A stretch of 27,724 nucleotides of DNA from a virus (lineage: Duplodnaviria > Heunggongvirae > Uroviricota > Caudoviricetes), in IMG/VR virus record IMGVR_UViG_2617270952_000002, positions 1-27,724 of that record, one strand, 5' to 3'. The translations under genes and the position numbers were made by a program. The notes beneath the pieces are model-generated. The model was given only the letters and a program-made list of their open reading frames with translations. It did not search any database and was not told where the DNA came from. Below are positions 15,025 to 27,138 of this stretch, piece after piece; position 1 is the stretch's first letter, and each line of letters begins with the position of its first letter.

Positions 15025-16587
15025 ATGAAAATGACAAGTATTCAACAACGTGCAGAGCTTCATCGTCAAATCTGGCAAATTGCTAACGATGTCAGGGGTT
15101 CGGTCGATGGATGGGATTTTAAGCAATACGTTCTGGGCGCACTTTTCTACCGTTTTATCAGCGAAAATTTTTCCAGTTATATTGAAGCCGGTGATGACAG
15201 TATCTGTTATGCGAAACTGGATGACAGCGTAATTACTGATGACATTAAAGACGATGCCATCAAAACTAAAGGCTACTTCATCTACCCCAGTCAGCTTTTC
15301 TGCAACGTAGCTGCGAAAGCAAATACTAATGACAGACTGAATGCAGATTTAAACAGCATCTTCGTTGCTATCGAAAGTTCTGCTTACGGTTATCCTTCAG
15401 AAGCTGACATCAAAGGTTTGTTTGCTGATTTCGATACTACCAGTAACCGCCTGGGTAACACCGTTAAAGATAAAAATGCCCGCCTGGCTGCGGTTCTGAA
15501 AGGGGTTGAAGGGTTAAAACTTGGTGACTTCAACGAACATCAGATTGACCTGTTCGGTGACGCCTATGAGTTCCTGATTTCTAACTATGCGGCGAATGCC
15601 GGTAAGTCAGGCGGCGAGTTCTTTACACCGCAACACGTCTCTAAGCTGATTGCACAACTGGCTATGCACGGGCAGACCCACGTTAACAAAATCTACGACC
15701 CGGCAGCAGGATCCGGTTCGCTGTTGTTGCAGGCTAAAAAACAGTTTGATGACCATATCATCGAAGAAGGCTTTTTTGGTCAGGAAATCAACCATACAAC
15801 CTATAACCTGGCACGTATGAACATGTTTTTGCACAACATCAACTACGACAAGTTTGATATCAAGCTGGGTAATACACTGACTGAGCCACACTTCAGAGAT
15901 GAAAAACCGTTTGATGCCATCGTTTCTAACCCGCCGTATTCGGTGAAATGGATTGGCAGCGATGACCCGACGCTGATTAACGATGAACGTTTTGCCCCGG
16001 CTGGCGTTCTGGCCCCCAAATCCAAAGCTGACTTTGCGTTTGTATTACATGCGCTGAACTATCTTTCTGCCAAAGGTCGTGCTGCGATTGTTTGCTTCCC
16101 GGGTATTTTTTACCGTGGCGGCGCGGAGCAGAAAATCCGTCAGTATCTGATTGACAATAACTATGTCGAAACCGTAATTTCACTGGCACCGAACCTGTTC
16201 TTTGGCACCACCATTGCAGTAAACATTCTGGTTCTGTCCAAACATAAAACGGATACCAACGTTCAGTTTATTGACGCCAGCGAACTGTTCAAAAAAGAGA
16301 CTAACAACAATATCCTGACCGATGCCCATATCGAACAGATTATGCAGGTATTTGCCAGCAAGGAAGATGTTGCTCATCTGGCGAAATCTGTCGCGTTTGA
16401 GACCGTTGTTGCTAATGACTATAACCTGTCGGTGAGCAGCTATGTGGAAGCGAAAGATAACCGCGAAATTATCGATATTGCTGAGCTGAATGCTGAGCTG
16501 AAAACCACGGTCAGCAAAATCGACCAGTTGCGCAAAGATATTGATGCGATTGTGGCTGAAATTGAAGGCTGCGAGGTGCAGAAATGA
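15025..16587 (+). CDS. hsdM: type I restriction-modification system methyltransferase subunit HsdM
   Basis: 520 aa; AdoMet motif DPAAGSGS and catalytic NPPY. Confidence 0.95.
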
Positions 16588-17798
16588 GCGAGATGAGTTA
16601 TCTGGAAAAATTGCTGGATGGGGTTGAAGTTGAGTGGTTGCCATTGGGGGAAATAACCAAATATGAACAGCCAACAAAGTATTTGGTAAAAGCAAAAGAT
16701 TATCACGACACATATACCATACCGGTTCTTACTGCCGGAAAAACATTTATTCTTGGATACACAAATGAGACTCATGGTATTTATCAGGCATCAAAGGCAC
16801 CTGTAATAATTTTTGATGATTTCACCACCGCTAATAAATGGGTGGATTTTGACTTTAAGGCAAAATCATCGGCCATGAAAATGGTTACATCATGTGATGA
16901 TAATAAAACCTTACTGAAATATGTTTACTATTGGCTCAATACATTACCAAGTGAATTCGCAGAGGGAGACCATAAACGCCAATGGATTAGTAATTATTCT
17001 CAAAAAAAAATCCCAATCCCCTGCCCGGATAATCCGGAAAAATCCCTTGCCATCCAGTCTGAAATCGTTCGGATTCTGGATAAATTTACTGCACTTACCG
17101 CTGAGCTTACCGCTGAGCTTAACATGCGTAAAAAACAGTACAACTACTATCGCGACCAGTTGTTGAGTTTTAAAGAGGGTGAGGTTGAGTGGAAGACTTT
17201 GGGAGAGATCGGAAAATGGTATGGGGGAGGGACACCATCAAAAAATAAAATTGAATTTTGGGAAAATGGAAGCATTCCATGGATTTCCCCGAAAGATATG
17301 GGCCGAACACTTGTAGACTCTTCGGAAGACTATATAACTGAGGAGGCTGTTCTACAATCGTCAACAAAACTGATTCCAGCAAACTCGATTGCAATCGTTG
17401 TTCGCTCAAGCATATTGGATAAAGTATTACCAAGTGCATTAATAAAAGTACCTGCTACGCTCAATCAAGATATGAAAGCAGTCATTCCTCATGAAAACAT
17501 CTTGGTTAAATATATTTATCATATGATTGGGTCTAGGGGGAGTGATATTCTGCGAGCAGCGAAAAAGACAGGAGGGTCCGTAGCTTCTATTGACAGTAAA
17601 AAATTATTTTCATTTAAAATTCCGGTTCCTAACATCAATGAACAACAACGAATTGTCGAAATACTCGACAAATTCGACACACTGACTAACTCCATCACCG
17701 AAGGTCTTCCGCGTGAAATCGAGTTGCGCCAGAAACAATACGAGTACTATCGTGATTTACTGTTCAGTTTCCCGAAACCTGAAACTGTCAGTAATTAA
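16584..17798 (+). CDS. hsdS: type I R-M specificity subunit HsdS (type IC-like, TAEL repeat in central conserved region)
   Basis: 404 aa; two target-recognition domains separated by ...[23 protein letters not shown]...; overlaps hsdM stop. Confidence 0.9.
17094..17117 (+). repeat. 2x tandem 12-bp repeat (cttaccgctgag) encoding TAEL-TAEL in hsdS
   Basis: Direct tandem duplication read in sequence. Confidence 0.85.
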
Positions 17799-17919
17799 TT
17801 GATCATTGCTACCGATCGGACCACCTTAACACCCGGTCAGTATATAGACTATTTTTTACGCGCCGGAAGTCACCATTACCCCCCTTCCGGCCCTTGCCAG
17901 ACGGCACAAAGGATGCGCT

Positions 17920-20900
17920 ATGACTCATCAGACACACACCATTGCTGAATCCAATAACTTTATCGTTCTTGATAAGTACATCAAAGCTGAGCCAACAGGC
18001 GACAGCTACCAGAGCGAATCGGACCTGGAACGCGAACTGATACAGGACCTACGGAATCAGGGCTATGAATTTATATCCGTAAAATCACAGTCGGCGATGC
18101 TGGCCAATGTTCGGGAACAGCTTCAGAACCTCAATGGTGTGGTGTTTAATGACAGCGAGTGGCGGCGTTTCACGGAGCAGTATCTGGATAACCCGAGCGA
18201 TGGCATTCTGGATAAGACCCGTAAAATCCATATCGACTATATTTGCGACTTTATTTTTGATGACGAGCGTCTTGAGAACATCTATTTGATAGATAAAAAG
18301 AATCTCATGCGCAATAAGGTGCAGATTATCCAGCAGTTTGAACAGGCGGGTTCTCACGCTAACCGTTATGACGTAACTATCCTGGTTAATGGCTTACCGC
18401 TGGTACAAATCGAACTGAAAAAACGCGGCGTGGCGATTCGTGAGGCTTTCAACCAGATACATCGTTACAGTAAAGAGAGTTTTAACAGCGAAAATTCCCT
18501 GTTTAAGTATCTGCAGCTGTTCGTCATTTCCAACGGCACTGATACCCGTTATTTTGCCAACACGACAAAGCGCGATAAAAACAGTTTTGACTTCACCATG
18601 AACTGGGCGAAATCAGACAATACGCTGATTAAAGACCTCAAAGACTTTACCGCCACCTTTTTCCAGAAACATACTCTGCTTAATGTTCTGGTGAACTACA
18701 GCGTTTTTGACAGCAGTCAGACACTACTGGTAATGCGACCGTACCAGATTGCCGCCACCGAGCGCATTCTGTGGAAAATTAAGAGTTCCTTTACAGCGAA
18801 GAACTGGTCAAAACCGGAAAGCGGTGGGTATATCTGGCACACTACCGGTTCTGGTAAAACCCTCACCAGCTTTAAAGCCGCGCGTCTGGCAACAGAGCTG
18901 GACTTTATTGATAAAGTCTTCTTTGTGGTCGACAGGAAAGACCTCGATTACCAGACCATGAAGGAATATCAGCGTTTTTCGCCAGACAGCGTCAACGGCT
19001 CGGAAAATACCGCAGGCCTTAAACGAAATCTGGATAAGGACGATAACAAAATTATCGTCACTACTATTCAGAAACTCAATAACCTGATGAAAGCAGAAAG
19101 CGATCTGCCTGTATATAATCAGCAAGTGGTGTTTATATTTGATGAATGCCACCGCAGCCAGTTTGGAGAAGCGCAGAAAAACCTGAAGAAGAAATTCAAA
19201 CGCTATTATCAGTTTGGTTTTACCGGCACCCCTATTTTCCCGGAAAACGCCTTAGGCTCAGAAACAACCGCCAGCGTATTTGGTCGTGAATTGCATTCGT
19301 ATGTAATTACCGATGCGATTCGTGACGAAAAAGTGCTCAAATTCAAGGTGGACTACAACGATGTGCGGCCACAGTTTAAGTCTTTAGAGACAGAAACTGA
19401 CGAGAAAAAACTGAGTGCGGCTGAAAATCAGCAGGCGTTTCTTCATCCCATGCGTATTCAGGAAATCACGCAATATATTCTGAATAATTTCCGCCAGAAA
19501 ACCCACCGTACCTTCCCTGGCTCAAAAGGTTTTAATGCTATGTTGGCAGTGAGCAGCGTGGATGCCGCGAAAGCCTATTATGCGACGTTTAAACGGTTAC
19601 AAGAAGAAGCCGCTAATAAATCGGCTACCTATAAACCGCTGCGTATTGCGACAATCTTCTCCTTTGCCGCCAATGAAGAACAAAATGCCATTGGTGAAAT
19701 TTCCGATGAAACTTTTGATACCAGCGCAATGGACAGCAGTGCTAAAGAGTTTCTGGACGCTGCAATTCGTGAATATAACAGCCATTTTAAAACTAACTTT
19801 AGCACCGACAGTAACGGTTTTCAGAACTACTATCGTGATTTAGCCCAGCGGGTTAAAAATCAGGATATCGATCTGCTAATTGTCGTGGGGATGTTCTTAA
19901 CCGGCTTCGATGCTCCAACATTGAACACGCTATTCGTCGATAAAAACTTACGTTATCACGGCCTGATGCAGGCATTTTCCCGCACCAACCGCATTTATGA
20001 CGCCACTAAAACCTTCGGTAATATCGTCACTTTCCGGGATCTGGAACGCTCAACTATTGATGCCATAACGCTGTTTGGTGACAAAAACACCAAAAATGTG
20101 GTGTTAGAAAAGAGTTATACAGAGTATATGGAAGGCTTTACTGATGCTGCTACAGGTGAAGCTAAACGCGGCTTCATGACAGTAGTTTCAGAACTGGAAC
20201 AACGGTTCCCTGACCCTACCAGTATTGAAAGTGAAAAAGAGAAGAAAGACTTCGTTAAACTGTTTGGCGAATACCTGCGTGCCGAGAACATCCTGCAAAA
20301 CTATGATGAATTTGCCACGCTAAAAGCCCTGCAACAAATCGATCTTAGCGATCCTGTTGCGGTAGAAAAATTCAAAGCAGAACATTATGTGGATGATGAA
20401 AAGTTCGCTGAATTGCAAACAATTCGTCTCCCTGCTGATCGCAAGATTCAGGATTATCGTTCTGCCTATAACGATATTCGCGACTGGCAGCGCCGTGAGA
20501 AAGAAGCTGAGAAAAAAGAGAAATCAACCACTGACTGGGATGACGTAGTTTTTGAGGTCGATTTGCTGAAGTCTCAGGAAATAAACCTGGATTATATCCT
20601 TGGACTGATTTTCGAACACAACAGACAAAATAAAGGCAAGGGCGAAATGATCGAAGAGGTCAAACGCTTAATTCGTTCAAGCCTGGGAAACCGTGCTAAA
20701 GAGGGCCTGGTGGTCGATTTTATTCAGCAAACGAACCTGGATGATTTACCGGACAAAGCCAGCATCATTGACGCATTCTTTACGTTTGCTCAACGCGAAC
20801 AGCAACGTGAAGCAGAAGCATTGATAAAAGAAGAAAATCTCAATGAAGATGCAGCAAAACGCTATATTCGCACGTCTTTAAAACGCGAATATGCCACCGA

Positions 20901-21036
20901 AAATGGCACAGAATTAAACGAAACATTACCAAAACTTAGTCCGTTAAATCCGCAATATAAAACGAAAAAACAGGCAGTTTTCCAGAAAATCGTCTCGTTT
21001 ATTGAGAAGTTTAAAGGCGTAGGCGGAAAAATATAG
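17920..21036 (+). CDS. hsdR: type I R-M endonuclease/translocase subunit HsdR
   Basis: 1038 aa; PD-(D/E)xK-like IELKK, Walker A TGSGKT, DEAH-like FDECH. Confidence 0.95.
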
Positions 21037-21115
21037 CCCAATTCGTGTTTTTCTTGCGGGTTCTTAATTAAACCCGCAAGAGACCGTGGGGTTCCAAATG
21101 GCTAATATACTCCCC

Positions 21116-21202: not shown

Positions 21203-21230
21203 ATTTTCAGCTCCTGTGATTGATTGGATA

Positions 21231-21261
21231 CATGCCGCGCCTTGCGGCATGTTTTTATTTT
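21231..21261 (+). terminator. rho-independent terminator-like hairpin (plus strand, downstream of hsdR)
   Basis: catgccgc-gcctt-gcggcatg followed by tttttatttt. Confidence 0.5.
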
Positions 21262-21284: not shown

Positions 21285-21301
21285 ATATTTATTAGAGCAA
21301 T
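21285..21301 (-). promoter_or_regulatory. C1 operator
   Basis: atatttattagagcaat; 16/17 to rc consensus. Confidence 0.65.
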
Positions 21302-21807
21302 TATTGTTGATGGAGAAGCGCGTTTTCATACTCCCTGACCATTAACGTAAGCACGCCGTGCCTCCTGAAAACACGCGCCACTTCAATCTTATCTTCCAGC
21401 GCGAACGCGATTTTACTTAGACCAATTTTCTTAAGGAGATCAATCTTTGCTGGGCCGTCATTTCTGTCATCGGTGGCAGGACGCATAGATAGCAAAGGCT
21501 CAGCCCCGTTTGTTACGTACTTCCGCAGCCAGGCTCGTGTTTTATCCCTTGCGATCTCACAGCGCCCGGTTACAAACCAGACCGTGTAAACGTTAAATAA
21601 CTGGCGCACAATATCAATAACTGGAGTTATGGGAGTATCAGTGTCACAGGCGAGATTAAACTCGTTCCAGTCCTTTGTTAATGCACCTTTACCTGGTGGC
21701 GGAAGCAAATGCAGTCTGTCTTCAGTTGCCTCTGATATTGTTCCATCAATATCAACTATGACGATATACGGACGTTCCTGGTGTGCGTGTTTATTGAAAA
21801 TACTCAA
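21301..21807 (-). CDS. HAD-superfamily phosphatase-like protein
   Basis: N-terminal IVIVDIDGTIS (DxDGT motif I); 168 aa. Confidence 0.6.
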   Translation of the reverse strand: MSIFNKHAHQERPYIVIVDIDGTISEATEDRLHLLPPPGKGALTKDWNEFNLACDTDTPITPVIDIVRQLFNVYTVWFVTGRCEIARDKTRAWLRKYVTNGAEPLLSMRPATDDRNDGPAKIDLLKKIGLSKIAFALEDKIEVARVFRRHGVLTLMVREYENALLHQQ

Positions 21808-21879
21808 ATGCCCTCCTCATTGGACGAAAAAAATGCTGGTGGGCGCACTCCACCAGCATCAAAAGTGACACTGTAACTG

Positions 21880-23142
21880 TCAGCGAACGTAAATAGTGCC
21901 GCCGTTCTCTTTTTCCCATGCATCGCTACGTGCATAGCAAACATCGAGAAGTCTTCTTGCCGCTGTTTCCTCTAAACCCAATTCGACAACCAACTGCTCA
22001 TGACGGCGGGTAACCACATCAAACAGGGTATGCAGCCCTTTAGCTGCCAGATCATCAATAAATTCCGGTTCGAACGGCAGCTCTGCCTCTGCCAACATAA
22101 CCTCTTGCGCCCACTCAACTCGACGGACCAGTTCCGGGCGGCGGCTTTCCATCTCTTTACAGATCAATTCATGGAAGAACTCTACCCAACCTTCCGGCTG
22201 GAACTCGCGGAAAATGGCCAACGGCTGGAAGTTTGGCATCAACCATTCGTTGATTCGGATATCAATGGCATAGCCCATGTCGCAGCAGAACTGATAAGCA
22301 AAGTCCAGCTTAGAAACGATATAAGGACGCTCGTTATTGAACTCTTTAGGCGATGAGATCCCATAAGCCAGGAGGCGCGGGAAGAAGGAGATTTGCCCTA
22401 ACGTCGGATGAAGTTTGCTTGCAGGGAAACGTCGCTCAGTAATGCCATACATTTCCTTCTTGAGCGTCGCAAATTTGGCATTCTCATTAACCAGCGCGGT
22501 AACCTCTGCTTTTTTATTAGCAAATGCCACGCGCGCCTCACTTGCATCTTTAATAGTCTTTTTGAGCTGTTGGTTAAGGTCGGCGACCTGCTTACGCAGT
22601 TCCTGTCGCTCACTTTTGGCTTTGTTATAGCGTTTCTCAAGGTTAAAAGGATCAAGTTTCATGATCTCTTTATATTGAGATTTTAGCGTTGAAATCTGTG
22701 AGTTCCGCAGTTCAACCATCGCGGTCACTTCATTGAGTTTTGTTTCCAGCTCAATGCTTATACGTTCGGCATTATCAGCACGCTGGTTGGCGTCATGCGT
22801 CGCATCGTCGATCGCGTCCTGTTGCTGGCGTTTCAAATGTTCAATTTGCAGCTGAAGCTCTTCAATTTCTTTACCCTTCAGACCGAGATCCAACTGCATA
22901 TTTTCAGCTGCATCTACCAGGGAGTTATGGCTATCAGCTTCTGCGTTATAAACATCAATAAGCTGTGCGTGAAGCATCTCCGCTGACTGAACCGCATTAT
23001 CAAAAAAACGTGCTGTGAGGTCATCACAACTAACGCGGCGTTGCGCGGCCCGGATGTTCTGGATAATGGCCGGGATACCGGCATTCAGGACATCAGGGAT
23101 AGATACATTTTCGATTGATTGGTTTTGTGCTGAAGTGCTCAT
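21880..23142 (-). CDS. hypothetical protein with long coiled-coil N-terminal half (420 aa)
   Basis: Track ORF; heptad-rich Q/E/K/L sequence in residues ~90-230; start immediately after upstream stop. Confidence 0.55.
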   Translation of the reverse strand: MSTSAQNQSIENVSIPDVLNAGIPAIIQNIRAAQRRVSCDDLTARFFDNAVQSAEMLHAQLIDVYNAEADSHNSLVDAAENMQLDLGLKGKEIEELQLQIEHLKRQQQDAIDDATHDANQRADNAERISIELETKLNEVTAMVELRNSQISTLKSQYKEIMKLDPFNLEKRYNKAKSERQELRKQVADLNQQLKKTIKDASEARVAFANKKAEVTALVNENAKFATLKKEMYGITERRFPASKLHPTLGQISFFPRLLAYGISSPKEFNNERPYIVSKLDFAYQFCCDMGYAIDIRINEWLMPNFQPLAIFREFQPEGWVEFFHELICKEMESRRPELVRRVEWAQEVMLAEAELPFEPEFIDDLAAKGLHTLFDVVTRRHEQLVVELGLEETAARRLLDVCYARSDAWEKENGGTIYVR

Positions 23143-23143
23143 T

Positions 23144-23362
23144 TCAAAGTTCCGTATTAGCTTGTGCTTCGGTCATTTTTCCTAAGTATGAAGGAGGAAG
23201 GACTACGCAATTTGTATCCAGTCCCTCACCTATGGCAGCCTGTAAAATTCTGGCTAAGGTGAGTCTCTTGTTGCGATACCTGGTGATGACATGCCTGATA
23301 CCGCCGGTCGGCGTAACAAAGGCGATCAGCCAGTAGTGATATTTCCGTCGGAATGGCCACAT
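23144..23362 (-). CDS. hypothetical 72-aa protein
   Basis: Track ORF; stop adjacent to downstream ATG (coupling); operator pair upstream. Confidence 0.4.
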   Translation of the reverse strand: MWPFRRKYHYWLIAFVTPTGGIRHVITRYRNKRLTLARILQAAIGEGLDTNCVVLPPSYLGKMTEAQANTEL

Positions 23363-23376
23363 AGTGCACCCTGTAG

Positions 23377-23442
23377 ATTGCTCTAATAAAAAACGTGATA
23401 AGTGTACATCACGTTTTAAAAATATGGAATTATTAGAGCAAT
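23377..23442. promoter_or_regulatory. pair of inverted C1 operators (23377..23393 and 23426..23442)
   Basis: ATTGCTCTAATAAAAAA and ggaattattagagcaat; each 14/17. Confidence 0.6.
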
Positions 23443-23443
23443 A

Positions 23444-24145
23444 TTATTCTGATTCTCGCTCAAAAAACGAGCTGATAAGGGGAAGCCAATCCTCTGACAC
23501 TTCGCGAGGTCGCGGTTTGCCGTGGAAAAAGATTATTCGGCAGTCTTTTGGTAATGCCCCATTCCCCCTGGAGTAACGCGCGCTCGCATATTTCGAACCA
23601 GGTTCCACAACATCGGCCTTGTAACTTACAAACCATCCCGGATACAGATCCTGAAATGCTGGTGTATCATCACCCATAACCTTCCGCAAAAACCCCTGCT
23701 CACCCCAGCATTCAGTAGTAACACAACGAGCAACCCAACCTTCCGGATCTTGCCAGAATGCACTCCAGATATGCGCTTTTACACTATTTGGTATCCACAG
23801 GGCACCGCTACCACGATATTGTGGATGGTAAAAATCCCTAAGCATGGTGAAGCTGGTTGGTGGATTCTCAAGGATTGGGCGTATATCACCGGCAATAACT
23901 GTGTCCAAATCCAGATAGAACAGATCATCTGTTATATCCGGTCGGAACAACTCTATTTTCGCCCACCAGCCACGGCACTTTTGCCACTGGTTGATCAATG
24001 GGACAACTTTGACGCCAGGTACATGTAAACGCTTCAGGTCTGTCAGGCAAATAATTTCATAGCCTTTTGGCAGTTGATTAACCAGCCACTGCACATCGGA
24101 AGCGTTATAGTCACCACCAGAGCGAAAAACTAAAGCAATCTTCAT
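23444..24145 (-). CDS. hypothetical protein with DxD motif (possible GT-A-like nucleotide-sugar transferase fold)
   Basis: 233 aa; ...[12 protein letters not shown]...; assignment weak. Confidence 0.4.
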
Positions 24146-24834
24146 GCTGCACCATCACCTTTCACTTTCATCAATGTCAGGTTTCCGCAAAATACGGCAC
24201 CAGTGTCGATATACTGCTGATTCCAGAATGTCTTCGGGCTTTTCACCGGAGTGTGACCAAAGATAAAACGATCTGCGCCCGAAATTTCGCCACCAATATC
24301 ATCCATCGAATCACTGATACGCTCGCGCGCCCAGACAACGTTGAAAAGCGGCACCTCCTTACCGAATTGGTATTCATTATCCGGATAGTCGGCATGGGCT
24401 ATAACGATAGTTTCTTGCCCGGTGTTCAACTCAATGATATAGGGCAGTCGTCTTACCAACTCCACCAGCGCCCAGGCTAATATTTCCTGCTCAGTGTCCA
24501 GCATGAAGAACCATTGTCCGCCATTCATTAGCCAGTTATTCACGTTGCCATCTGGACTTAACGCATCAATCATCAGCCGCTCATGGTTACCCATGACCGC
24601 TCTGAACCAGGGCATCTGCAATAGTTCCAGACATTCGACATTTTCAGTACCGCGATCGATAAGGTCGCCGACCGATATCAGTAAATCCTGCGCCGGGTCA
24701 AAATCCACACGATGGAGTTCGGACATCAGTCTGGTGTAGCAACCATGCAGATCACCAACAACCCAGACATTCCTGTATTTGGTACCGTCGATACGGTGAT
24801 AAATTGTGGGTGCCATCATGTATTCTTCAGCCAT
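24142..24834 (-). CDS. Ser/Thr protein phosphatase-family metallophosphoesterase (lambda PPase-like)
   Basis: Motifs GDLHGC, GDLIDRG, GNHE. Confidence 0.85.
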
Positions 24835-25442
24835 TCTTTAAGAGTCATCTGCGGAATACCTCCCATTCTCCCGCATGAAACAACGTCAATCTGTTCACGC
24901 GCAGACTGGAATAACAAAGGCAGGTGACTTAGATTTTTTGGCGTGCCGCCGGAGTGAACGCGTGGTTCTTGTGTAGCGTCAACGCCCACCAGGGCGACAT
25001 GTTTGAATCCGATATGGAAAGCCAGGTTCAGAGCGCCATATGCACTATTGCCGCTGGCAATTTCATTCTCATCTTCGCAAAGTCCGAAATGTGCGGACCA
25101 GCGCCACGCCCACCACTCGGGAGAATTCGTATTTTTTGGCTCCATGCCACGTTCAGCCACACGACGGAAGCACAGAACGCCGTCTCTGACTTCACGTTCT
25201 TTAACATCGGGTAGTGCCATGCAATAACAAACACCACGGCGACGGCGGCCACGACCAACGCGCCGCATATTGTCTGGCGATGGATCAAGTGTGAAAAAAT
25301 AAGAAGCGCGGTTCAGCCAGTCGATGGCCCCATTGACCGCTATAATCGGCACTCCGCGCGGCGCAACAAAGTTTGCGGCGCTTGGGCCACTGCCGACGAT
25401 AATAACGCGATCACTGCCTCTAAATTTATTCTTGGGAAACAT
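24816..25442 (-). CDS. hypothetical protein, GxGPS Rossmann-like motif (paralog 1)
   Basis: VIIVGSGPS...IIAVNGA; paralogous to next gene. Confidence 0.5.
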
Positions 25443-26002
25443 TGAATTGCACTGCTCCTACTTGCATTCAAAATATGTAAATCTGCGTGTTTTTTGCGGG
25501 TATCCAGGAACTGCTGTTGCCATTTTGAAATAGACACCTGCGTTGGATTCCGTAGGGCTTGAGGGTGTGCTCCATGCCAATGAAGGCCGTTTTGCAGAGA
25601 ACAGTCATAGCCGACTAATACAACTACTTCAGCCCCTGATTCAGCCGCCAGACTGATAGCCTGCGCGCCGCTATTAACCCCTTCAGCCGGTCCACAATAT
25701 CGCCTGTACTCCAACGAAAATGATTTCGCCGCCGCCAGGTTGGCTGTCACTTTGCGGAATCTCCCTCCCGGTATGGTGGATCCGTATTGCTTCCACCATG
25801 ACAAATCACCGGCGTATAAGGCATAAATGTCATCGAACATCTGCCAGGAATTGTTAACCGCGATGATTGAACAGCCAGTTTTTTCTATAGCAGCACAGTC
25901 CTCACGAGTGAGTGACGGACCGCTACCGACACAAAAAACAGTCCTAGTCGCCCTGGGTGGTATGTTCATTCTCAGCTGCAAATTCAGCCTCCAGGCGAGC
26001 AT
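25340..26002 (-). CDS. hypothetical protein, GxGPS Rossmann-like motif (paralog 2); start may be internal Met at ~25969
   Basis: VFCVGSGPS...IIAVNNS; shares LVG-D and HxG blocks with paralog 1. Confidence 0.5.
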   Translation of the reverse strand: MLAWRLNLQLRMNIPPRATRTVFCVGSGPSLTREDCAAIEKTGCSIIAVNNSWQMFDDIYALYAGDLSWWKQYGSTIPGGRFRKVTANLAAAKSFSLEYRRYCGPAEGVNSGAQAISLAAESGAEVVVLVGYDCSLQNGLHWHGAHPQALRNPTQVSISKWQQQFLDTRKKHADLHILNASRSSAIQCFPRINLEAVIALLSSAVAQAPQTLLRRAECRL

Positions 26003-26165
26003 TCATTTCAGCGATTACCGGGTCCACTACAGCATCTGCTTCCTGTTCATTACGCGGCATGATCGATGCCAGCGATTCATAATTAGCCTTGGATGACACG
26101 ATTATTCTCCCGATGTTAATGTGCGCTATATCAAAGAGCACACATGCACTAATTAATTTATTATT

Positions 26166-26744
26166 TCACGTAGCGTACAACCACTTGTCACCGTTCAATA
26201 CATGCTCAATAGCCTCACCCTTTTTAAGGCTCATGTATTCCAGGATGGCGGTTATCGCTTGTTCTGCACCATACGCAAGAACGACGTAGTAACCTTCCTC
26301 TCTAAGCCTGCGCATCCAGGCGATCTGCTCTTTCGTCGGGGCTTTACCATTTGGTTCTTTAAGCTCAATTCGCATGCCGTGATAAATACCGCATGCTTTA
26401 TCGAGACTCATGTCCGGATAACCTTTTTTCTGCCCTTCAGCCTTCATTTTCCCGGCGGTTGCTTTTGAACGTTTCCCTCCGTTAGGCGTTGCATGCAACA
26501 GCTCATAGATGTCAGGGTGCTTGCGTTCGAAGTAATCAAAAATGAAAACCTGCTCGAAGTGCTCGCAATTTCCGTCGCGCAGGTCGGGGTTCTTTGCCAG
26601 TGCTGCAAGTGCCTTCGCATGTGGAGAAACTTCTTTTACCGGCGCAAGCGATAAGAATGGATCCTTTTTGGTTTTTGGCCTGGACCGCCCCTTATTTCGA
26701 CGCTCACTAAAAGCCTGAAACTCTTCCTCAGTAAAGCGCAACAT
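26166..26744 (-). CDS. VRR-NUC domain nuclease-like protein
   Basis: ...HATPNGGKRSKATAGKMKAEGQKKGYPDMSLDKACGIYHGMRIELKEPNGKAPTKEQIAWMRRL... (PD-(D/E)xK-like D...ELK). Confidence 0.65.
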   Translation of the reverse strand: MLRFTEEEFQAFSERRNKGRSRPKTKKDPFLSLAPVKEVSPHAKALAALAKNPDLRDGNCEHFEQVFIFDYFERKHPDIYELLHATPNGGKRSKATAGKMKAEGQKKGYPDMSLDKACGIYHGMRIELKEPNGKAPTKEQIAWMRRLREEGYYVVLAYGAEQAITAILEYMSLKKGEAIEHVLNGDKWLYAT

Positions 26745-26746
26745 AA

Positions 26747-26992
26747 TCAGTCAAATCCTGCCGGTCGCATGCTATATTTACGCTGTTTTGCAGCCTGCTC
26801 TTCCCTGTGCCATTGCGCACATTCAGCGTCACAATAAATGCCTGATTCAATCGATTCATTGCAGTAACGACACTTCCCTGTAAATACCTGGCTCACGACC
26901 TGTGCCTGCTTTCTGATGTTATCGATGGCCATGTCTTTGAGAGCTTCTAACTGATTCATGCTCAGCTCTGCATCATCAACACGTTCTGCCAA
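26747..26992 (-). CDS. TraR/DksA-family C4 zinc-finger protein
   Basis: 81 aa; CRYCNESIESGIYCDAEC. Confidence 0.6.
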   Translation of the reverse strand: MAERVDDAELSMNQLEALKDMAIDNIRKQAQVVSQVFTGKCRYCNESIESGIYCDAECAQWHREEQAAKQRKYSMRPAGFD

Positions 26993-27049: not shown

Positions 27050-27066
27050 ATTGCACTAATAATTTT
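27050..27066 (+). promoter_or_regulatory. C1 operator-like site in divergent intergenic region
   Basis: attgcactaataatttt; 15/17. Confidence 0.5.
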
Positions 27067-27138
27067 CTTTTATTGAGTTAAATAATCAACAAATGACTAG
27101 CGGTAGAATCACCATCATCTATTTCTGGCAGGCTGACT

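Follow-up and report, generated by a model that had tools for sequence, protein, structure and literature searches.

A possible protein glycosylation cassette, pmgO-pmgP-pmgQ, within a C1-repressed block of a P1-like phage-plasmid

The window (the whole stretch of DNA analysed here, 27,724 nucleotides, positions 1 to 27,724 of the IMG/VR virus record IMGVR_UViG_2617270952_000002) is an E. coli phage-plasmid of the P1-like IncY type, and the ten co-directional minus-strand open reading frames that fill its positions 21301-26992 are the P1/P7 block pmgL-pmgM-pmgN-pmgO-pmgP-ppp-pmgQ-pmgR-pmgS-pap. We propose, with a probability of roughly 0.55 and so slightly better than even, that this block is a mosaic of C1-repressed units whose core, pmgO-pmgP-pmgQ, is a mobile, late-acting cassette that glycosylates proteins (those of the virion in phages), possibly with cytidine monophosphate-activated 3-deoxy-D-manno-octulosonate (CMP-Kdo). 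PmgO and PmgP would be paralogous transferases using a CMP-activated ulosonic acid, for which CMP-Kdo is the most plausible donor, and PmgQ would add a hexose from a uridine diphosphate (UDP)-sugar. Acting jointly in the cytoplasm at a late stage of infection, they would place a short glycan onto a protein, which in phages is most probably one of the head or another part of the virion; this modification would be dispensable for plaque formation in the laboratory.

An earlier reading of the same DNA from its letters alone (hereafter the sequence-only reading) had pointed to the P1 pmg/upf/ppp/pap region for comparison, and that region did prove to be the counterpart of the block. P1 (AF234172, 78602-84293) is colinear with it at 97.9% identity over 5692 nt with 0 indels, P7, RCS47 and SJ46 show 98.3-98.6% identity, and these and other punaviruses match its full length at 97.5-98.6%. 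Window coordinate = coordinate in our locus L001 + 18300, by which every annotated P1 feature can be transferred. Genes, gene order, operators and promoters are as in P1 pmgL-pap (AF234172) and P7 upf81.0-hdmA-D-ppp-shtA/B-pap (AF503408; 97.9-98.3% identity for the two), the sole difference from P1 being a type I hsdMSR cassette downstream of pap here, where P1 has pmgT-humD. The block is thus a sequenced and annotated P1 region, and fold-level names for most of its members are already in public annotation. The recurrent, fusion-linked pmgO-pmgP-pmgQ(-methyltransferase) cassette beside capsid genes or Ig-like adhesins is, as far as the literature was searched, new, and that search found no paper giving a function to pmgO, pmgP, pmgQ, pmgS, pmgL, pmgM or pap.

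PmgQ, PmgO and PmgP resemble glycosyltransferases

The residues that are invariant in a 25-member alignment of PmgQ are D36, a WW..K motif, DLDT (D79-L-D81-T), D104, GDQ, SYK and HGxPxP (with His208), the DLD of residues 79-81 (window 23903-23911) being the DxD motif of the protein. The family profile matched enzymes of glycosyltransferase family 8 (GT8) in the PDB, namely Gat1 (1.6e-6), GlyE (0.002) and also glycogenin, with D79-L-D81-T aligned to the DxD of Gat1 and GlyE. Using the AlphaFold2 model (predicted local distance difference test score, pLDDT, 93.7), the top 50 Foldseek matches in the PDB were all GT8-type retaining enzymes of the glycosyltransferase A (GT-A) fold and included Gat1 (3e-9), glycogenin, LgtC, GlyE, WbbM, XXYLT1 and UGGT, with the protein-directed Gat1 and glycogenin first. 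On this model PmgQ is a GT8-like retaining GT-A glycosyltransferase, whose enzymatic activity we infer from fold and motifs. Its GT8 kinship is visible only by family profile and fold, as PmgQ had no Pfam match at E <= 0.1, Glyco_transf_8 included, and PDB searches that used the single sequences of PmgQ, PmgO and PmgS, or a narrow PmgP profile, were unproductive. With the protein-directed GT8 enzymes (glycogenin, the Skp1-pathway enzyme Gat1 and GlyE of Streptococcus) PmgQ shares the GT-A fold and the DxD. Its conserved C-terminal His-Gly-x-Pro-x-Pro is a candidate counterpart of the H..KPW of GT8 enzymes with its metal-binding His, HMMER placing this invariant segment two residues out of register with the motif of Gat1. 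It differs from these enzymes in having only 12-16% identity to them and in being, at 233 residues, much smaller and without extra domains.

PmgO and PmgP are paralogues (hhalign probability 97.5%, E 5.5e-12), with the motifs GSGPS (residues 26-30), S111 and GYD (131-133) in PmgO and GSGPS (17-21), S133 and GVD (153-155) in PmgP, and these align with the GNGPS, ITSG and GID of the Campylobacter sialyltransferase CstII. At sequence level a broad profile of the PmgO/PmgP family found only sialyltransferases (CstII at E 0.003-0.005, CstI and an Lst-type enzyme) and no kinase; GxGPS, N37 (the Asn of the second strand), S133 and GxD155 are matched in the alignment with CstII, and among these positions are the most conserved columns of the family. 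The positions of the GNGPS/Ser/GxD motifs are said in the CstII structure paper to act in CMP binding. The model of PmgP (pLDDT 92) has an MptE-like fold with the flagellin nonulosonic-acid transferase Maf as its best fold match, a fold which by itself is unable to tell transferases and kinases apart. Against Pfam MptE-like (PF01973; cut-off 34.6) PmgO and PmgP of P1 reach 21-23 bits and two other members of the family, P0088 and P0254, exceed the cut-off with 44 bits, and 18 of the 51 listed PmgO homologue clusters have a precomputed match to this Pfam family. PmgO and PmgP are therefore probably CMP-sugar transferases of the CstII/Maf type, an assignment drawn from profiles and motifs. By contrast with CstII and CstI (CAZy GT42) and with Maf they are minimal domains of about 190-210 residues, without the CstII lid or the flanking flagellin-binding domains of Maf, and are always paired with a GT8-like enzyme.

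The name of the Pfam family invites a different reading, in which PmgO and PmgP are pyrophosphokinases of the MptE or thiamine-pyrophosphokinase type that, with PmgQ, produce or alter some small molecule or a substrate bearing a hydroxymethyl group. Two cassettes lying in nucleotide-metabolism regions (see below) would suit it, but the restriction of the profile matches to sialyltransferases, the position of Maf as best fold match, a constant and often fused partner that is a glycosyltransferase, and accessory genes of the sugar-tailoring type all speak against it, and we regard it as improbable.

PmgP is the most conserved member of the cassette. Its family is of modest size, with 535 clusters (50% identity) in a set of 1.84 billion representatives. 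A BFVD search returned only uncharacterised phage proteins and a scan of viral contigs with the PmgP alignment only near-identical P1 loci. The PmgO family has in addition an invariant HWHGxH (residues 141-146, window 25565-25582) and an invariant Cys in GYDCS (codon 134), neither of which is present in PmgP or CstII and which may form a metal site. The true start of PmgO may be Met12, and homologues start some 18-22 residues later.

The cassette outside P1

Neighbourhoods of distant homologues were gathered and scanned with profiles of the PmgO, PmgP and PmgQ families, and 25 loci had enough sequence to judge. PmgP and PmgQ homologues were adjacent, or nearly so, in all 25, and a PmgO homologue was present in 18. 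The hosts are Gamma-, Beta- and Alphaproteobacteria with one Bacteroidota and one Gemmatimonadota genome, those that are named all being diderm. Natural fusions were found of the types O+P, P+Q, Q+P, Q+P+S-adenosylmethionine (SAM)-methyltransferase and methyltransferase+P (P0088, P0219, P0287, P0303, P0267 and P0304). This co-occurrence and these fusions show that pmgO, pmgP and pmgQ work as a unit, to which the other genes of the block do not belong and which recurs in many phages unrelated to one another, usually with capsid genes as neighbours.

The sequence-only reading had treated the ten genes as one functional module. This does not hold, as only pmgO, pmgP and pmgQ co-occur outside P1-like elements and close relatives of P1, the synteny of pmgL/M and of pmgR/S is confined to P1-like plasmids, and divergent P1-like plasmids lack ppp and pap. 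The position of ppp between pmgP and pmgQ is likewise a feature of the P1 lineage only; in no cassette outside it is ppp present, the slot there being empty or occupied by a SAM-dependent methyltransferase. Some loci have extra genes in the cassette, for a SAM or FkbM methyltransferase, a cupin or a further glucosyltransferase.

The settings of the cassette bear on its acceptor. In six prophages or phage contigs (L003, L005, L008, L009, L105 and L106) it lies directly 3' of the major capsid gene and before the head-tail adaptor genes, and in one further locus (L110) it lies within a structural cluster. Five species-level enterobacterial genomes, of Pseudescherichia and relatives (L100, 3345-13338, and also L099 and L101-L103), have chromosomal PmgO/P/Q-like genes interleaved with genes for Ig-like proteins, namely a 1166-residue inverse-autotransporter adhesin (IAT_beta and seven Big_1 repeats) and two more Big_1 proteins. 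This suggests that these five loci are an undescribed adhesin glycosylation locus. It is from these head-gene and adhesin-gene neighbourhoods that a protein acceptor is proposed. Ser/Thr-rich C-terminal extensions were looked for on the capsid proteins beside the cassette, where only short ...GS ends were seen, which are uninformative.

Donor sugar

The donors of CstII and Maf are nine-carbon acids activated with CMP, and to our knowledge CMP-Kdo is the only CMP-activated donor of that class in E. coli K-12, a host of P1. Two divergent P1-like plasmids, L013 (Pantoea, CP034366) and L014 (a Nissabacter-like contig), keep pmgL-pmgM-x-pmgO-pmgP-pmgQ-pmgR-pmgS without ppp and pap, and have downstream of pmgS, 2.3 kb beyond the cassette, a gene for CMP-Kdo synthetase, kdsB (L013 12654-13418, L014 12908-13564). 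The L013 copy scores 254 bits against an equivalog cut-off of 155; the L014 copy is short at its N-terminus and at 96 bits is below the cut-off. In E. coli, Maf enzymes have been found to place Kdo on Ser/Thr residues of flagellin (10.1101/2020.06.03.131540).

A bolder form of the proposal is that P1 and hundreds of phages of diderm hosts O-glycosylate their own virion proteins with a Kdo-containing glycan, drawing on a host or phage pool of CMP-Kdo and often with a methyltransferase as an additional member, and that the cassette also glycosylates Ig-like adhesins in some enterobacteria; this we hold to be doubtful, though possible. Were this bolder form correct, no earlier virion glycosylation system would be known from phages of Gram-negative bacteria, and no earlier natural case of protein-linked Kdo.

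Several observations weigh against virion protein glycosylation as the function of the cassette. The literature searched reports no glycan on P1 virions, and two recent P1 structure papers are silent on one. In P1 itself the cassette adjoins baseplate/tail genes and pmgR, not the capsid gene, and PmgO, PmgP and PmgQ of P1 all fall under Pfam cut-offs. In three loci the cassette is placed between the genes for lysis and that for terminase, where morons are typically found, and another locus (L114) is a chromosome with a solitary PmgP-PmgQ pair. Two phage contigs (L111, 5-12095, and L115, 460-12640) have the cassette among genes for DNA polymerase A, a MazG-like protein, ribonucleotide reductase, ThyX and deoxynucleoside monophosphate kinase; neither a hydroxymethylase nor a dioxygenase was seen in these two, where the cassette may have a nucleic-acid-related role. 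With regard to the donor, kdsB is near the cassette in two P1-like plasmids only, and the similarity to the Kdo III transferase WaaZ is weak.

Lipopolysaccharide as an alternative target

The lipopolysaccharide (LPS) core is the receptor of P1, and the cassette could instead remodel the envelope, PmgQ acting like the GT8 outer-core transferases WaaO/WaaJ and PmgO/PmgP like a Kdo transferase such as WaaZ, such that an LPS core altered during lytic growth would prevent superinfection or the loss of progeny on debris. The fold matches of PmgQ do include LgtC and LPS-type enzymes, kdsB is a gene of the LPS pathway, the named hosts are all diderm, three cassettes occupy the moron site described above, and the motif region of WaaZ aligns weakly with PmgP and PmgO, with a faint precomputed WaaZ_KDO_III match on the O+P fusion protein P0088. 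That similarity is not significant, however (hhalign probability just 9-19%), and the faint Pfam match was not reproduced, and WaaZ was rejected as a close relative of PmgO/PmgP. The best matches of PmgQ are protein-directed GT8 enzymes, and the chromosomal copies of the cassette are with adhesin genes and not in waa or O-antigen clusters. Furthermore, C1 represses the cassette (through the operator Op83) in the lysogen, and elsewhere it is embedded in late head operons, too late for surface LPS to be replaced. The seroconversion genes so far known are prophage-expressed. We therefore consider LPS remodelling unlikely.

DNA as an alternative target

The sequence-only reading had favoured nucleic-acid or protein modification and anti-defence. 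That the cassette would glycosylate phage DNA to evade restriction is the weakest rival to protein glycosylation and one to which we give very little weight; we know of no pair of C5-methyltransferase and 5-methylcytosine (5mC) dioxygenase in P1 and of no report of sugars on P1 DNA. There are precedents, since some GT-A enzymes of phages, which are kin to WaaJ/WaaO of the LPS GT8 group, glycosylate 5-hydroxymethylcytosine (5hmC) in DNA, and some of their clusters are near structural genes; such glycosylation needs a C5-methyltransferase and a 5mC dioxygenase, or a hydroxymethylase (Pyle et al., 10.1101/2023.12.21.572611). The cassettes of L111 and L115 among replication and nucleotide genes, and the type I restriction system adjoining pap in the window, can also be counted in its favour. 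However, no dioxygenase, no hydroxymethylase and no such pair was seen at the 14 related places for which precomputed Pfam gene tables were available (L007 has a C5-methylase without a dioxygenase); for the other loci the scans were limited to our own profiles plus some Pfam samples, and the remainder of the window was not scanned for hydroxymethyl-pyrimidine genes. The chromosomal copies adjoin adhesins, and antirestriction is unchanged in deletions of pmgO, pmgP, pmgQ, ppp and pap (PMC9024508). Neither the suggested DNA target nor the anti-defence role is supported. A PADLOC scan gave no match to a defence model except two weak coiled-coil matches of PmgS to LmuB.

Published phenotypes

In the work of Gonzales et al. 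(PMC9024508), genes throughout the block were deleted one at a time and in frame, among them pmgN, pmgO, pmgP, pmgQ, pmgS, ppp and pap, and infectious particles were lost only with deletion of pmgR, which left heads and tails unjoined and for which complementation was reported; the remaining mutants gave normal plaques and normal antirestriction. A knock-down screen with dCas12a (PMC10695390) agrees with the deletions except that it missed pmgR and scored pmgN as essential. The two studies thus conflict over pmgN, which is essential by CRISPR interference while its deletion is viable, and simple polarity does not explain the discrepancy because guides on the four genes directly downstream were all non-essential.

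These phenotypes also bear on the database annotation, by which the products are morphogenetic or structural proteins ("putative morphogenetic function" in P1; "head morphogenesis" and "sheath" in P7, with the names hdmA-D and shtA/B). The essential role of pmgR in joining heads to tails fits that annotation, as does the place of the cassette beside head genes in other phages. For PmgO, PmgP and PmgQ we find it scarcely credible, since a morphogenetic phenotype is known for pmgR only, deletions of pmgO, pmgP and pmgQ plaque normally, the three proteins have enzyme folds with conserved catalytic-type motifs, and among the pmg proteins discussed only PmgC and PmgG were reported as detected in the virion proteome (PMC9024508). 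The view of the sequence-only reading that the set is of a modification rather than a structural type is supported in part: its members are mostly enzymes and not virion parts, and a modification module, pmgO-pmgP-pmgQ, is among them, but pmgR is morphogenetic.

Comparison with virion glycosylation in mycobacteriophages, and significance

A 2023 study by Freeman et al. in Cell Host Microbe, cited in PMC12801897 and in genome announcements, reportedly found that mycobacteriophage glycosyltransferases glycosylate capsid and tail proteins. In that system the capsid gene has genes for glycosyltransferases and methyltransferases as neighbours, without which the phage can still grow, and the position of the pmgO-pmgP-pmgQ cassette in HK97-like prophages mirrors this arrangement. 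The cassette differs in its enzyme families, its diderm hosts and its putative sugar, an ulosonic acid.

P1 is much used in genetics, and for twenty years the genes in this tenth of its late-gene region have been known by placeholder names. Three of these placeholders now become a specific hypothesis which can be tested quickly, as the in-frame deletion mutants exist, and which concerns a three-gene unit found across prophages from Proteobacteria, Bacteroidota and Gemmatimonadota. Virion glycosylation, if confirmed, would have a bearing on the way in which immune systems and bacterial surface receptors recognise Gram-negative phages (and so on phage therapy), on adhesin biology in enterobacteria, and on glyco-engineering, where small soluble enzymes that place ulosonic acids on proteins in E. 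coli would be of use. If it is not confirmed, the region is an ordinary and already annotated P1 accessory block.

Operators and transcription units

The positions of genes and control sites are listed in the table. A search with the C1 consensus found 10 operator-like sites in the window compared to 0.18 expected; Op83, with 4 mismatches to the search consensus, was missed by it and was located using the P1 record. The C1 operators that the sequence-only reading had noticed in front of pmgR are real, being identical to Op86b and Op86a of P1, but its single long operon under their control is not borne out. Op86a/b fall within the 81 bp that separate pmgQ from pmgR and because of this location can act only on pmgR-pmgS(-pap), Op82 and Op83 serve the genes upstream, and a terminator-like hairpin separates pmgS from pap. 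These operator positions, the gaps of 81 bp and 72 bp and the hairpin speak against a single-operon model, which was rejected, and the block is at least three C1-repressed units of the lytic phase, through which transcription from a single late promoter may run as well. A consensus promoter scan gave fewer sites than shuffled sequence did and was uninformative.

Table. Genes and control sites of the pmgL-pap block and of the adjoining restriction-modification cassette (window coordinates).
Feature	Position	Strand	Remarks
hsdM	15025-16587	+	type I restriction-modification cassette
hsdS	16584-17798	+	type I restriction-modification cassette
hsdR	17920-21036	+	type I restriction-modification cassette
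C1 operator Op88 (OpmgT)	21285..21301	-	overlaps pap stop codon; 1 mismatch to consensus, 1 to the colinear P1 operator
pap	21301..21807	-	168 aa; predicted HAD-superfamily phosphatase, polynucleotide-kinase/3'-phosphatase type
terminator-like hairpin	21832..21860	-	11-bp stem then T-run; between pmgS and pap
pmgS (P7 shtB)	21880..23142	-	420 aa; coiled coil
pmgR	23144..23362	-	colinear with P1 pmgR; deletion phenotype and complementation in PMC9024508
C1 operators Op86b, Op86a	23377..23442		Op86b 23377-23393 (+), Op86a 23426-23442 (-); identical to P1
predicted promoter PpmgR	23413-23441		between pmgQ and pmgR
pmgQ (P7 hdmD)	23444..24145	-	233 aa; predicted GT8-like retaining GT-A glycosyltransferase
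ppp	24142..24834	-	230 aa; predicted lambda-type Ser/Thr protein phosphatase (PPP family)
pmgP (P7 hdmC)	24816..25442	-	208 aa; CstII/Maf-like (MptE-like fold) putative CMP-sugar glycosyltransferase
pmgO (P7 hdmB)	25340..26002	-	220 aa; pmgP paralogue
pmgN (P7 hdmA)	25944..26141	-	small open reading frame; reads as 65 aa here, given as 156 nt in the P1 record; the first gene to follow Op83
C1 operator Op83 (Oppp)	26143..26159	+	before pmgN-pmgO-pmgP-ppp-pmgQ; identical to P1
pmgM	26166..26744	-	192 aa; predicted VRR-NUC (PD-(D/E)xK) nuclease
pmgL	26747..26992	-	81 aa; putative DksA/TraR-like C4 zinc-finger protein
Op82/O26 operator and late promoter LPpmgL	27050-27066; 27081-27099		upstream of pmgL, common with divergent gene 26; operator identical to P1

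Other genes of the block

The gene families that the sequence-only reading had named (two phosphatases, a DxD protein, two GxGPS paralogs, a VRR-NUC nuclease and a TraR-like zinc finger) are all present by motifs and profile scores, and of these ppp, pap, pmgM and pmgL are passengers unrelated to the cassette. Ppp has the motifs GDLHG, GDLIDRG and GNHE and matches Pfam Metallophos (1e-15) and the NCBIfam protein-Ser/Thr phosphatase (1.8e-81). Pap has a DIDGT HAD motif at residues 19-23 and matches Pfam HAD_PNKP (6.1e-12; 46.3 bits compared to a cut-off of 27.6) and the PHROG polynucleotide kinase family (2e-56); its best solved relative is Pnkp1 (4xrp, 5.5e-4), and as it has no kinase domain it appears, by these family matches, to be like the 3'-phosphatase half of RNA/DNA end-healing enzymes. 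A role for Pap as a KdsC-like sugar-phosphate phosphatase for the cassette was considered and rejected, as its matches are of the PNKP type and kdsB in the relatives replaces pap and does not accompany it.

PmgM scores below the cut-off for Pfam VRR_NUC (3e-4; 21.2 bits compared to 23.8) but matches the PHROG Holliday junction resolvase family (5.9e-27), and it has PD at residues 110-111 and ExK at 127-129, giving PD...ExK; going by family membership, it is probably a resolvase for branched DNA before headful packaging. PmgL matches PHROG 54 (DksA-like zinc finger, 1.6e-12) and has no match to Pfam zf-dskA_traR. Its cysteines at 41, 44, 54 and 58 have a shorter spacing (Cx2Cx9Cx3C) and its N-terminus, MAERVDDAE, is acidic; as a member of this family it may be a TraR/DksA-like factor acting on host RNA polymerase. 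PmgS belongs to PHROG 1660 (3e-195), its other matches being of the coiled-coil type only, and its homologue in L014 carries an HHH_5 match. Family searches gave no assignment for pmgN.

A misspelling in the note on pmgM in the P1 record, "norphogenetic", has spread as "norphogenetic protein" to hundreds of records of PmgM, PmgN, PmgO and PmgP homologues in several genera.

The flanking restriction-modification cassette

The type I restriction-modification cassette (window 15025-21036, plus strand) lies between phd/doc and pap and stands in place of humD-lxr-hot-upfO/N/M-pmgV/U/T of P1, with a junction near 21105-21112. Colinearity with P1 ends where the P1 record remarks on identity to the DNA flanking the type IC hsd genes of EcoDXXI and R124. 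A second strong terminator-like hairpin is found at 21230-21252 (plus strand), in the gap between the convergent pap and hsdR genes.

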